From positions 32,412-96,411 of the forward strand of contig JAIBAP010000014.1 of NCBI GenBank assembly GCA_019695115.1: a stretch of DNA of 64,000 nucleotides. Reading direction: 5' to 3'. How positions within the stretch are numbered: the stretch's first letter is position 1; every line of letters begins with the position of its first letter. Shown in pieces: positions 14,932 through 18,290 of this stretch. A program made the position numbers and the translations under genes. The notes under the pieces are model-generated. The model saw only the letters and a program-made list of their open reading frames with translations, made no database searches and was not told the origin of the DNA. Source of the stretch: Caldilineales bacterium (GTDB taxonomy: Bacteria; Chloroflexota; Anaerolineae; J102).

Positions 14932-16536
14932 CTACATCCCCCACACCGTGATCGTTTGGTCGTTGTGCTGCGCCGACTGCACCCAAATGCGTTCGTCCCA
15001 GTCGCGATCGGGACGGCGGTCGAAGACCACCAGATGCGCTTCATCGGCGCCGCCGCGGTCGGCGTATTCCCAGGTCTGCGCCAGCCCTTCAGCCAAAGTC
15101 GCCGCCAGCGAACGCCGCAGCACCTTCAACTCGATCACGGCCCGTTGCACCGGCGGCTGCCCCCCTCCGACCGGCCAAATGACCAATAAGTCCGTCCGTC
15201 CTCTCCCCAGGCCGTACTCGCGTTCGACCCGGCCACCGCCGTTGATGATGCGCTGCAAGAACGCCTGCATGAGAAGCTGCGGCCCGGCCTCTTTGTAGTC
15301 GAATCGCTCCAACCAGATCTCGGAGTTTTCGCGGAAGAACTGCTGAAAGGCCGTCAGCAGCTTCGGCAAATCCAGCCGGCCGTTGGCATCGATGTACCAC
15401 GCCGGCTGCTGTGCAATGGTCAGCTGCGCGCTGAAAGTCAGCTCGCGGGGAATCACCTCCTGGTAGATGCGGTTGGCGATGGCAAGCTGTCCTTCAGTTT
15501 TGATCAGGCCCAAGTCGCGTACGTAGGTGATGTCGTCGGTTGGGATTGTATCTGCTTGCTGATCACCACCCAGGATCGCCTCCAGGGTGCGCCGCACGCG
15601 CGGCTCCTTCAGTTTATCGGCCAACTGATCGATATGGGTCACGCGATCAACGATCAACTGCTCTTTGGCGGCAAGGATTTGTTCTTCGGTGATTGGTTGG
15701 CTGCGGTCGCGCCCGGCTTTCGAGTCGAAACAGGCTGTGTAGGCAAGCGCATTCACCAGCCAGGGCTGCCCAGCCGTCAACTCCCACACGGCGTCGAGCG
15801 CCTCGCGCGTGAAGACCTGGCCGGTCTCCTGCGTGTGCTCCCACAGCAATGCCCCGGTCTCCTCGCGGCTGAAATCGCCCAGCCGTAGCGACTTGGCCTT
15901 GATGTTGAAGGCGCTGCCGCCGGTGATGGCCGTCTTCTCGTTGCTGGATTGAATGCGATAGTCCTGCAAATCGCGCACGCCGCAGAGGATCACCGTTTGC
16001 GGGAAGAGGTCGGGGCGTTTGGGATAGCCGGCGCGCAACTGGCGCAGCAAGGCGATGAGGGTGTCGCCCACCAGCGCATCCACTTCATCCAACAGCAACA
16101 CCGTCGGCAAGGGCGCCTTCTCGCACCAGCGCGTCAAGAATTCCTCAACACTGGTGCCGCCGGTTGAAGTGGCCAGCACCTCTCTTGCCAGCGTCGTCGC
16201 GCCGGCGTCGCCGATCTGGTCGCGTGCGCTACGCGAGATCTGCTCGACGACCGTGGCCATGCCCTTGTCCACATTCTCGCGATATGCCTGCGCCACCTCG
16301 ATGTTGGCATAGACCGCGCGATAGCGCCCTTCCTGGTTCAGATAAGCGGCCAGCGCCAACAAGCACGAGGTCTTGCCGGTCTGGCGTGGGGCATGAAGCA
16401 AGAAGTATTTCTGCTGTTCGATCAACTGCAGCACGTCGTTGAGATCAAAACGCTGCAATGGCGGCAGACAGTAATGGCGGGTGCAGTTCACCGGCCCTTC
16501 GGTGTTGAAGAATCGCATGGTCGTTTCTTGGTGCAT
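14932..16536 (-). CDS. AAA-ATPase-like protein with a C-terminal PD-(D/E)XK nuclease-fold domain (DUF1703 / PDDEXK_9 architecture)
   Basis: An N-terminal Walker A-containing region (LLHAPRQTGKTSCLLAL). A C-terminal ...RTDLLVIWP...VIELKVL... segment typical of the PD-(D/E)XK_9 family. A TATAAT-like -10 box sits on the minus strand at 16557-16562. Confidence 0.7.
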   Translation of the reverse strand: MHQETTMRFFNTEGPVNCTRHYCLPPLQRFDLNDVLQLIEQQKYFLLHAPRQTGKTSCLLALAAYLNQEGRYRAVYANIEVAQAYRENVDKGMATVVEQISRSARDQIGDAGATTLAREVLATSTGGTSVEEFLTRWCEKAPLPTVLLLDEVDALVGDTLIALLRQLRAGYPKRPDLFPQTVILCGVRDLQDYRIQSSNEKTAITGGSAFNIKAKSLRLGDFSREETGALLWEHTQETGQVFTREALDAVWELTAGQPWLVNALAYTACFDSKAGRDRSQPITEEQILAAKEQLIVDRVTHIDQLADKLKEPRVRRTLEAILGGDQQADTIPTDDITYVRDLGLIKTEGQLAIANRIYQEVIPRELTFSAQLTIAQQPAWYIDANGRLDLPKLLTAFQQFFRENSEIWLERFDYKEAGPQLLMQAFLQRIINGGGRVEREYGLGRGRTDLLVIWPVGGGQPPVQRAVIELKVLRRSLAATLAEGLAQTWEYADRGGADEAHLVVFDRRPDRDWDERIWVQSAQHNDQTITVWGM

Positions 16537-16793
16537 GAACCGTTCAGAGTAGCCATATTATACCATGCTCTTGTCGGCGTCCGGCGTGATACATGGTCTC
16601 AGCCGGGGCATCGATGGTTGGATTTGCTATGGAAAGCTGATGCACGCGGTCTACAGAGAAAGCAGCCCGAACAATTCTTCGCGCTGGCTTTCGTCCCCCA
16701 GAACAGCTTCAGCCGTAAACCACCGATCGATGATCGCTTGATTGATCTCGAGATCGTGCAGCGCCTGTGGCGTCAGTGATGCCTCGGCCAGGA

Positions 16794-18290
16794 CTAGGAT
16801 GGTTTCTGCCAGATCGTAATACTCTTGCGCAGCGCCTGACGACCAAATTTCCCCATTTGCTGGCTGCTGTTGCCCTTGCGCTGCGGCAGGACGTAGATCT
16901 TCTGCGGCAGGAAGCCCATCTGTTCGGCCAGGTTTGTGCTCAGCGCGTCCACGGGGATGATCTCGCCCGCATAGCGAACGTTGTCATTGACAAAGGCGAC
17001 GCAAGCCCCGCGCCGGCAAAGGCGGTGCAATTCGGCAAAGACAAAGGCCAGCTCGGTGAAATACTGGTCGATCATCGTCAGGACGCCGCGATTGTTGATC
17101 TCACCCCGTCGATTGCGGTTTATCAGGGCGGCGTTGACTTCGGCCAGCGCCGCATTCGCCTGCACGATGGCCTGGATGCAGCGAAAGCGCTCGCCCTGCC
17201 CAAGTTGCTCATAGTGCGCGGCCAGCTTGTCCAGCTTGGGCTTGTTCTCGACCGTGCAAGAGAGCAAGCTCTGGCGCAGGTCGAAGATGCCGGCGTCCAC
17301 CCCCAGGAAGGCCAGTTCCAGCGCATAGGTGCGGGTGTAGTCGTAGCGGTTGGCATAGGGCGGCGAGGTGATCACCCCGGCAAAATGGCCTTCCGCCAGT
17401 TGCGGCAGGACGAACAGGGCGTTGCCGGCGATCAGTTCCTGGCGGCTGGGCGACGGCGGATCGACCTGCAACCGGCTCACATCGTGGATGATCCTGGTCA
17501 GCGCCTCCAGAAGACCCTGCTTGACGGTTGGCAGTGGCCCTTTGTGGATGGCCGTAGAGGGCGTGTTGCCGTTGGCCGAGCGGCGCTCGGCGTTGCGGCG
17601 GACTTTGGCAGCGCGCTCGTCCCAGCGCAAATACTGGCCGTCCTTGCGCGTATAGCTCACGCTCTCCAACAGGCTCATCAGCAGCATCCTGGCAAGCACC
17701 CTGGCATCTTCGCTCAGATCCAGGCGCTCGAACCAGCGCCTGTAATTCATAATCTCGCGCTCGGTTTCCTCTGGAAAGGCGCTCTCGGTGATAGCCAGAT
17801 GCGGGAAAGGCTCGCCGGCCTCGGGCGGCTCACTGGTCTCGATCAGGGTGCGCAGGCGGCGCAGTTCATCCAGATCGTAAGCGAAGACGCGCGCTTTGGC
17901 TTCCCAGGCCAGATGACAGTGCGGCAGTAGCTCGACGCCGGTGGCATCGACGCCGAGCATCTTCGCCTCCAAAAGCGTCGTGCAGGAGCCGGCAAAGGGA
18001 TCGAGGACGGCGTCGCCCGGCCCCACGCCCAATTCCACCAACAGCAGTTCCACCAGATCGGCCGAGAAACCCTCGCGGTACTTCATCCAGCCGTGCAGGG
18101 CCTCGGTTTTGTTGGCCTGGAAGCTGACGAGCTTGCGGTTGAACCGATCTGTTTCCTCGAATAGAGCGGTGTAGCGCGCCTCCAATGCCTGCCGCTCTTT
18201 GTCCGGGCAAACGCCGCCATGCGAGAAGGCGCTATGGGCGATGTTCTCGCGGCTGGTCGTGGCTTCAGAGAAGAGGGCGAGTTGCTGCAT
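16794..18290 (-). CDS. DNA methyltransferase (N6-adenine or N4-cytosine; motif I before motif IV, alpha-like order)
   Basis: AdoMet motif I is DPFAGSCTT near residue 95. Catalytic motif IV is SPPY near residue 315, with about 215 aa of putative target-recognition region between them. The start lies only 21 bp downstream of the upstream porBG-type stop. Confidence 0.75.
   Translation of the reverse strand: MQQLALFSEATTSRENIAHSAFSHGGVCPDKERQALEARYTALFEETDRFNRKLVSFQANKTEALHGWMKYREGFSADLVELLLVELGVGPGDAVLDPFAGSCTTLLEAKMLGVDATGVELLPHCHLAWEAKARVFAYDLDELRRLRTLIETSEPPEAGEPFPHLAITESAFPEETEREIMNYRRWFERLDLSEDARVLARMLLMSLLESVSYTRKDGQYLRWDERAAKVRRNAERRSANGNTPSTAIHKGPLPTVKQGLLEALTRIIHDVSRLQVDPPSPSRQELIAGNALFVLPQLAEGHFAGVITSPPYANRYDYTRTYALELAFLGVDAGIFDLRQSLLSCTVENKPKLDKLAAHYEQLGQGERFRCIQAIVQANAALAEVNAALINRNRRGEINNRGVLTMIDQYFTELAFVFAELHRLCRRGACVAFVNDNVRYAGEIIPVDALSTNLAEQMGFLPQKIYVLPQRKGNSSQQMGKFGRQALRKSITIWQKPS

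Follow-up and report, generated by a model that had tools for sequence, protein, structure and literature searches.

Probable in-place decay of an AvaI/BsoBI/XcyI-type restriction-modification system, with a solitary methyltransferase retained beside an unrelated ATPase gene in a Caldilineales genome

Introduction

When a DNA methyltransferase gene lies directly behind an energy-metabolism operon and is followed on the same strand by a gene for an ATPase with a nuclease-like domain, the question arises whether the two proteins act together as a restriction-modification (R-M) pair of an unrecognized kind. Such an arrangement is found in a 64,000-nucleotide stretch of a Caldilineales bacterium (contig JAIBAP010000014.1 of assembly GCA_019695115.1), referred to here as the window, for which the original prediction offered two readings: that the AAA+/PD-(D/E)XK protein supplies the restriction activity that belongs with the methyltransferase, or, as a fallback, that the methyltransferase is an orphan riding on the metabolic operon. 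Several lines of evidence argue for a more conventional history. Very probably the locus holds a decayed Type II R-M system of the AvaI/BsoBI/XcyI type in which the methyltransferase (M) has been retained as a solitary enzyme, and the ATPase gene beside it is unrelated. The evidence comes from an endonuclease (R) remnant lying between the two genes, from the gene content of related loci, from the depletion of the CYCGRG hexamers in the surrounding DNA, and from the selection acting on M after R was lost.

Results

An endonuclease stump between the two genes

Both of the open reading frames (ORFs) originally described, of 498 and 534 amino acids (aa), are present on the minus strand, and the features on which the argument turns are the following.

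16794-18290, minus strand: methyltransferase ORF, 498 aa, directly 3' of the gene for the beta/gamma subunit of a 2-oxoacid:ferredoxin oxidoreductase (OFOR)
16651-16803, minus strand: endonuclease remnant, the last ~50 codons of the gene and its stop codon (16651-16653)
16794-16799, minus strand: inferred deletion junction, placed from C-terminus and DNA alignments
14932-16536, minus strand: ATPase ORF, 534 aa, with a match to Pfam AAA_35; the probable gene is 14932-16518, 528 aa

The 257 bp that separate the two ORFs read, in one frame, as a sequence ending in TILVLAEASLTPQALHDLEINQAIIDRWFTAEAVLGDESQREELFGLLSL and a stop codon. When the endonucleases that follow M in two related loci (L001 and L004, beside the M homologues P0002 and P0011) were used as tblastn queries, they matched window positions 16651-16809 with 44-51% identity and E values from 3e-11 to 8e-9; the alignments cover endonuclease residues 259/260-310 and end at a common stop codon. 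On this evidence we assign 16651-16803 to the 3' end of a predicted Type II restriction endonuclease of the XcyI/BsoBI clan, from its XcyI-like branch. The earlier statement that no canonical restriction endonuclease is adjacent is correct for an intact enzyme, since no intact cognate endonuclease adjoins M, but it overlooked the 3' end that is still in place. The catalytic ExK motif of these endonucleases is at residues 227-230, upstream of the part that survives (~260-310 of about 310 residues), and the catalytic core (D...ExK) is thus gone from the window.

The boundaries of the deletion can be read from the C-terminus of M, which ends in ...RKSITIWQKP in relatives and in ...RKSITIWQKPS followed by a stop codon in the window, so that the native stop codon has been lost and one residue gained. 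Since the C-terminus is otherwise native, the deletion would have begun at the M stop codon and taken the spacer and ~260 R codons. Two related lineages, L118 and L124, have TTG at the position where the window has TAG, and their M frame continues for 7 codons into the R stump to give a protein of 505 aa. The window TAG is most simply viewed as a later mutation that would have trimmed this 7-residue tail.

The usual partner of the methyltransferase family

If the stump is what remains of the partner of M, then methyltransferases of the same family should have a related endonuclease as their neighbor. To this end 80 genome loci were compared that encode M homologues of 39-68% identity, from Chloroflexota, Rhodothermales, cyanobacteria, Latescibacterota and others. 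The loci were classed by what directly follows M, which could be assessed in 71 of them; in one case (L013) R is cut by the contig end with 484 nt of room, and this locus was counted as not assessable rather than partial.

Full-length endonuclease of one related clan, starting -46 to +158 nt from the end of M: 50 loci
Partial R remnant: 10 loci
Nothing detectable: 11 loci
Not assessable (contig ends): 9 loci

Some of the full-length downstream endonucleases match the Endonuc-BsobI model (466-492 bits) and others RE_XcyI, and an ExKGG(I/A)D motif is common to all of the examined variants but one (type f, the L078 group). M and R are fused in one database protein, P0115 (821 aa). The comparison identifies an XcyI/BsoBI-clan endonuclease, encoded immediately downstream, as the true partner of M. 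It also revealed that R has been lost or truncated in 21 of the 71 assessable loci, and several of the partial remnants (L025, L041, L049, L068 and L090) are C-terminal stumps positioned just after M, as in the window.

The closest relatives place the intact system at the very same site. The M homologue P0002, 68% identical and encoded in the Caldilineales metagenome-assembled genome (MAG) GCA_024102915.1, lies in the order OFOR-alpha, OFOR-beta, M, a 310-aa RE_XcyI protein, and a gene of the M20 amidohydrolase/carboxypeptidase family, and the ATPase gene is absent. This order, with an R of 310 aa and without the ATPase, is seen in two Caldilineales relatives, the MAG loci L001/L016 and L015, and in L016 the M20 gene follows the endonuclease gene directly after a gap of 50 nt. 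The gap between OFOR and M in these intact-system relatives is ~16 nt (L015) or ~115 nt (L016), and such short distances indicate that the R-M operon has long been placed directly behind the OFOR genes. The OFOR and M20 genes are, in this sense, the housekeeping flanks of an old R-M insertion site. Related arrangements occur farther away: in L052 (2443-5150), a locus of a more distant Chloroflexota MAG, M (61% identical) is followed after 57 nt by M20 (44% identical) with no endonuclease between them, and L031 has M and R and then, beyond a gap, M20. The linkage of M-R to M20 therefore reaches beyond the close relatives, and R was lost independently in L052.

Identity and predicted target of the methyltransferase

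The window M scores 34.8 bits with Pfam N6_N4_Mtase (PF01555), above the cut-off of 26.7, and along its whole length it matches the MTase_II model PDLC03224, which is PADLOC/REBASE-derived (E = 7.7e-147). Its homologues number at least 8000, the best of them 62-68% identical and ~496 aa long. Motif I (DPFAGSCTT, residues 97-105, 17976-18002) precedes motif IV (SPPY, residues 309-312, 17355-17366), which is the order of the alpha class and agrees with the original description, although the interval between the two motifs measures 203 aa rather than the ~215 aa given there. The SPPY motif is typical of N4-cytosine methyltransferases. The enzyme is thus the modification component of a Type II R-M system of the AvaI/BsoBI/XcyI type, and it is now solitary.

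The site cleaved by BsoBI and AvaI is C^YCGRG, and that cleaved by XcyI is C^CCGGG. Word counts on both strands of the window, compared with maximal-order Markov expectations, gave the following ratios of observed to expected.

CCCGGG: 0.20
CTCGAG: 0.28
CCCGAG: 0.27
CTCGGG: 0.27
Other twelve CNCGNG words: 0.50-1.26

The pooled CYCGRG count is 48 against an expected 195, a ~4-fold depletion; these are the only depleted words among the 16 of the form CNCGNG, and they rank 2, 6, 12 and 13 in the set of 2075 hexamers expected at least 20 times. This depletion is indirect evidence, the probable footprint of long exposure to an endonuclease of AvaI/BsoBI specificity. Together with the SPPY motif it leads to the prediction that M makes N4-methylcytosine (m4C) at CYCGRG; the most probable activity of the enzyme is N4-methylation of cytosine within the AvaI/BsoBI recognition sequence.

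The persistence of the footprint would also be expected if the system were split, that is, if a functional endonuclease of the same specificity were encoded elsewhere in the genome with M as its protective partner, and the strong purifying selection on M described below is what one would see were its loss lethal to the cell. We regard this arrangement as improbable. The window contains no second copy of R, and a split arrangement is not the norm of a family in which R adjoins M in 50 of 71 loci. Slow recovery of word frequencies after the loss of R would leave the same depletion.

A second set of words, GRGCYC, which corresponds to BanII-type specificity, is depleted more than CYCGRG (GAGCCC/GGGCTC 0.04, GGGCCC 0.11, GAGCTC 0.30; other GNGCNC words 0.59-0.95). 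This suggests a second restriction system, of BanII-type specificity and possibly still active, somewhere in the genome.

Selection on the methyltransferase after loss of the endonuclease

The loci L118 (96% nucleotide identity to the window) and L124 (90%) both carry OFOR-beta, M, the R stump and the ATPase gene, and L124 also includes the start of M20. Because the deletion is common to the window and these two lineages, their divergence post-dates the loss of R, and substitutions among them record the selection that has acted on M since it became solitary. Ratios of nonsynonymous to synonymous substitution rates (dN/dS), calculated by the Nei-Gojobori method (NG86) for the window against each relative, are as follows.

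Methyltransferase: 0.099 versus L124, 0.090 versus L118
OFOR-beta: 0.081 versus both L124 and L118
ATPase: 0.23 versus L124
R stump (50 codons, few changes): 0.26 versus L124, 0.40 versus L118

The synonymous distance (dS) among the three lineages is about 0.14-0.34. M has been kept by purifying selection since the deletion, like the OFOR gene. In an alignment of 116 homologues, 179 columns show conservation of at least 97%. M retains 177 of these, and this conservation together with a dN/dS of ~0.1 indicates that the solitary enzyme is being maintained and is not decaying. It departs from the family at N234A and G247A, within the block ...RNN.kR...GKKP..GIHKG... of the putative target-recognition region, and both positions are Ala in the window, L118 and L124. 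They could reflect an activity or specificity altered after orphaning, or drift of the lineage.

These two substitutions at near-invariant positions, and the frequency with which R is lost or truncated in the family as a whole, which marks these systems as prone to decay, could be taken to mean that M is itself a non-functional relic that has yet to gain disabling mutations. We consider this very unlikely, given that the post-deletion dN/dS of 0.09-0.10, measured over a dS of 0.15-0.34, matches that of the adjacent OFOR gene, that the frame is intact in three lineages with all catalytic motifs present, and that the window TAG trims what would otherwise be an aberrant 7-residue tail.

Structure and expression of the ATPase gene

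The remaining question is what the ATPase contributes. Further features of its gene are these.

16557-16565, minus strand: extended -10-like box TGGTATAAT, read from the sequence, 38 nt upstream of the ATPase start
~14935-15405, minus strand: probable PD-(D/E)XK domain, in the C-terminal part of the ATPase

All homologues begin MRFFNTEGP, and the 100% identical protein P0121 from a Caldilineales MAG, annotated as an "AAA-like domain-containing protein", is 528 aa long. The start is therefore most probably the second ATG, at 16518; the 534-aa frame first reported is real, but the gene within it is most probably the 528-aa version. AAA_35 (PF14516) is the only Pfam family matched above threshold (29.4 bits versus 27, residues 46-354); a weak match to ATPase_2 (E = 0.0057) is below it. 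In 35 homologues there is no variation in the Walker A GKT (residues 48-50) or in the Walker B DE (residues 144-145), and an AlphaFold model with a mean predicted local distance difference test score (pLDDT) of 75.6 yielded Foldseek matches to clamp-loader, Orc1/Cdc6 and RuvB AAA+ proteins with probabilities of 0.98-1.0. The C-terminal domain, modeled in isolation (pLDDT 85.4), has the alpha-beta-beta-beta-alpha-beta order of the PD-(D/E)XK core, and E434, D443 and E463-x-K465 within it are invariant in the same number of homologues. Its match to PDDEXK_9 (PF08011) is sub-threshold (E = 0.024; 15.1 bits versus 25.5), and its best Foldseek nuclease matches, EndoMS (E = 0.077) and CinB, are not significant. 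The domain is a probable PD-(D/E)XK nuclease domain judging from its modeled fold and conserved residues. The DUF1703/PDDEXK_9 architecture first proposed is thus upheld as to an AAA+ module followed by a probable PD-(D/E)XK domain but not as to family, because PF09820 is not among the Pfam matches and PF08011 falls below threshold. The ATPase has no match in NCBIfam, PHROGs or the defense models of PADLOC-DB 2.0 (E <= 0.01), PDB sequences searched with profiles of the whole family and of the C-terminal domain gave no significant match, and a literature search for AAA_35/PF14516 found nothing relevant.

The two genes also appear to be expressed separately. The TATAAT reported at 16557-16562 on the minus strand is there, and it forms part of the extended -10 listed above, which is kept as TGnTATAAT in both L118 and L124 despite a 41-bp deletion just upstream in L124. 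The ATPase start lies 275 nt beyond M. Conservation of this box in the face of the L124 deletion implies that the ATPase gene is probably transcribed independently, with TGGTATAAT as its likely promoter. For M, the distance from the OFOR-beta stop codon to its ATG is exactly 21 nt, as the original prediction had it, and such a gap makes read-through from the OFOR genes, and so co-transcription of M with them, plausible. A consensus scan of 14700-21400 found no full sigma-70 promoter, no -35 match for the ATPase box and no terminator on the minus strand, and it neither supports nor refutes co-transcription of M and OFOR.

Distribution and neighborhoods of the ATPase family

The ATPase belongs to a family of at least 8000 clusters at 90% identity; the best 120 matches are 62-100% identical and ~525 aa long. 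Members are 60-77% identical across phyla and sometimes occur in two copies. The co-occurrence expected of a cognate pair, whose lack the original prediction named among its grounds for refutation, is not seen: no ATPase gene lies within 8 kb of M at any of the 80 M loci, none of 18 metagenome ATPase loci has M or a clan endonuclease, and an M of this family is present in one of ~18 independent ATPase contexts, namely the window's own lineage. The neighbors of the ATPase differ from place to place and include PqqD with ABC transporters, a Frankia-peptide gene with Crp, and toxin-antitoxin genes with ImuB/DnaE2, as well as glutamine synthetase, an ammonium transporter, Trk potassium-uptake genes, cell-wall genes and a HerA-like helicase. 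All-against-all clustering of the flanking ORFs identified two recurrent neighbors, an MmeI-type gene and the PqqD/ABC module, the latter in two related contexts. The MmeI-type Type IIL gene adjoins the ATPase in L100 and L101/L102 and as a fragment in L117, four loci of which about three are independent.

In L100 (8001-13786) a full-length MmeI-type gene (951 aa) is flanked on each side by a copy of the ATPase gene on the same strand (64% and 61% identical to that of the window), with gaps of 28 nt and 0 nt, and this arrangement may be composite or cassette-like; in L102 the MmeI-type gene ends 18 nt before the ATPase. More distant relatives, ~40% identical, are found one each on eight Pseudanabaena plasmids from two strains (L126 and L127: NZ_AP017561/562/564/565 and NZ_CP112875/877/878/879), and NZ_AP017565 has two matching places. 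Some of these copies are 2-3 kb from parAB, including that of ABRG53d, ~2.4 kb from parA/parB, and the pPg_04 copy sits between an ImmA/ubiquitin-like system and cas6, with a PIN toxin also in the neighborhood. One copy per replicon hints at a role in plasmid maintenance or replication.

Two other associations were considered and rejected. A phage origin is contradicted by the viral data, in which 2.9 million contigs gave a single distant match, and by the lack of any match in PHROGs. The linkage of the ATPase to OFOR in L096 is not meaningful, as the genes are 4.5 kb apart with PqqD, ABC-transporter genes and an ATPase paralogue between them and no R-M gene. Direct or inverted repeats and target-site duplications were looked for around the window ATPase gene, and only short matches at chance level were found.

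The ATPase is an independent solitary gene and not part of the R-M system of M. As a best guess, the protein would be a nuclease that binds DNA, is driven by ATP and has a selfish or conflict-related role. The narrower proposal that the family constitutes a single-gene conflict system independent of M, either an ATP-dependent defense nuclease or a selfish or plasmid-maintenance element that favors R-M or variable loci, is tentative and on balance doubtful.

That the ATPase-nuclease took over as restriction component, giving with M a non-canonical ATP-dependent R-M or defense pair, is scarcely credible even though the genes are adjacent on one strand and together in three lineages (dS ~0.14-0.34), the ATPase combines an AAA+ module with conserved nuclease-like residues, and its relatives lie beside MmeI-type R-M genes, because the pairing is confined to the window's lineage and largely refuted by the co-occurrence counts, the stump of the real R partner lies between the two genes, and the ATPase has its own conserved -10 box at a distance from M and no PADLOC match. 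The whole neighborhood is syntenic in the window, L118 and L124, and the fact that M and the ATPase stay together there is consequently uninformative. A cognate restriction role for the AAA+/PD-(D/E)XK protein is accordingly not supported, and the endonuclease whose stump remains takes its place as the partner of M.

Flanking genes

The order of transcription, all on the minus strand, is OFOR alpha, OFOR beta/gamma, M, ATPase, M20. The flanking genes are as follows.

19790-21007, minus strand: OFOR alpha, 405 aa, with Pfam POR_N/PFOR_II and NCBIfam matches
18312-19655, minus strand: OFOR beta/gamma fusion, 447 aa, with Pfam TPP_enzyme_C and POR and NCBIfam matches
13591-14802, minus strand: M20-family amidohydrolase/carboxypeptidase, with Pfam Peptidase_M20 and NCBIfam TIGR01891 matches

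Just upstream of OFOR-alpha, at 21281-22039 on the minus strand, is a gene whose 252-aa product combines DUF3782 and PDDEXK_10 nuclease domains with a coiled-coil. It is missing from the syntenic relative L001, which points to a further small insertion here, again of a nuclease-like gene. Copies of a 7-nt unit (ccaatct/ccccaat variants, minus strand) form a short tandem array at 14806-14840 that abuts the M20 start codon on its upstream side. At 4496-7911 on the plus strand the window encodes another 2-oxoacid oxidoreductase pair, a paralogue with ~33% identity to the first. Its 515-aa beta subunit, which binds thiamine pyrophosphate, is annotated with a CBS domain in the precomputed Pfam data for the identical contig.

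Discussion

A model for the decay of the system

The results are consistent with an ancestor that would have carried a conventional Type II operon, M followed by R on the same strand, between the OFOR operon and the M20 gene. A deletion of ~0.8 kb would then have run from the M stop codon through the short spacer and across the initial ~260 codons of R, with the catalytic core among them, leaving behind the 50-codon 3' stump. M survived this event intact and has been kept by purifying selection; it would now act as a solitary methyltransferase, with read-through from the OFOR genes as its probable means of transcription. The ATPase gene between the stump and M20 would have arrived independently. 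In this account the gene identities, the R stump, the synteny, the lack of co-occurrence, the selection on M and the CYCGRG depletion are observed, and the activity and target of M, its co-transcription with OFOR, the order in which deletion and ATPase arrival took place, and the function of the ATPase are conjectural.

Several observations weigh against this reading and should be kept in view. The ATPase family adjoins an MmeI-type R-M gene in 3-4 other contexts, a possible loose link to R-M loci. No repeats or target-site duplications mark the ATPase as an insertion, and its absence from L015/L016 could also be a loss in those lineages. CYCGRG depletion is historical evidence and no proof of a present methylation target, and with N234A and G247A changed in the orphan lineage the activity or specificity of M could have drifted. 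Lastly, 64 kb of the genome is visible, and a second endonuclease of the same specificity elsewhere would mean that M is no true orphan.

An important consequence of identifying the stump is that a false lead is removed, in that there is no new R-M architecture at this locus. In its place the locus offers a clean, datable case of the in-place decay of a Type II system, in which a single deletion would have removed the endonuclease while M was kept and the avoidance footprint persists. Selection on M is as strong as on the neighboring metabolic gene. Given its probable co-transcription with the energy-metabolism genes, M could reasonably be considered a candidate domesticated epigenetic enzyme of an uncultured Chloroflexota lineage. 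The prediction that follows is m4C at CYCGRG. The residual novelty is the large, uncharacterized ATPase-nuclease family, which perhaps deserves study in its own right; nothing ties it to M.

Comparison with known systems

The organization of the ATPase, an N-terminal AAA+ module with a C-terminal nuclease-like domain, resembles that of two known architectures, PF09820 with PF08011 (DUF1703/PDDEXK_9) and PF01637 with PF03008 (ATPase_2 with DUF234, COG1672), but the window protein differs from both in falling below threshold for all four Pfam families. The genes are also alike in often being multi-copy and in having no conserved genomic context, as is described for DUF1703 (PMC3424549).

The R-M components, in turn, are most readily compared with the BsoBI/AvaI systems (PF09194). 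Methyltransferases 55-61% identical to that of the window precede PF09194 endonucleases that match the family at 466-492 bits (L038, L086), the gene order is M then R on one strand as at the locus, and the window is depleted of exactly the CYCGRG words. It differs in that the window R is a 50-codon stump of the XcyI-like branch and not of the BsoBI branch proper, and in that the window specificity is a predicted one. Papers mentioning BsoBI yielded no data on its methyltransferase; a paper on the structure of BsoBI with DNA is cited in the reference list of PMC2441816.

The XcyI family (PF09571, RE_XcyI) provides the nearer comparison for the stump. Endonucleases beside the closest M homologues, including those of L001/L016, match this model at 48.7-77 bits, they have the ExKGG(I/A)D motif in common with the BsoBI-like enzymes, and it is to the C-terminus of this XcyI type that the window stump aligns. 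However, the model match is distant, and depletion in the window covers four CYCGRG words and not CCCGGG alone. M.XcyI is a short enzyme of the beta class, unlike the window M of ~500 aa, which belongs to the alpha class.

Finally, the fallback offered at the outset, an orphan methyltransferase behind an energy-metabolism operon, is supported, with the addition that the enzyme is the survivor of a decayed Type II system and not of the Dam/CcrM type. It is unrelated to those regulatory orphans, its match to the NCBIfam CcrM model being 15 bits against a cut-off of 830. The likeness is instead to orphan methyltransferases that arise by loss of R: in the window M is intact and under selection, R is degraded in place, and the same outcome recurs in 21 of the 71 loci in which it could be assessed.

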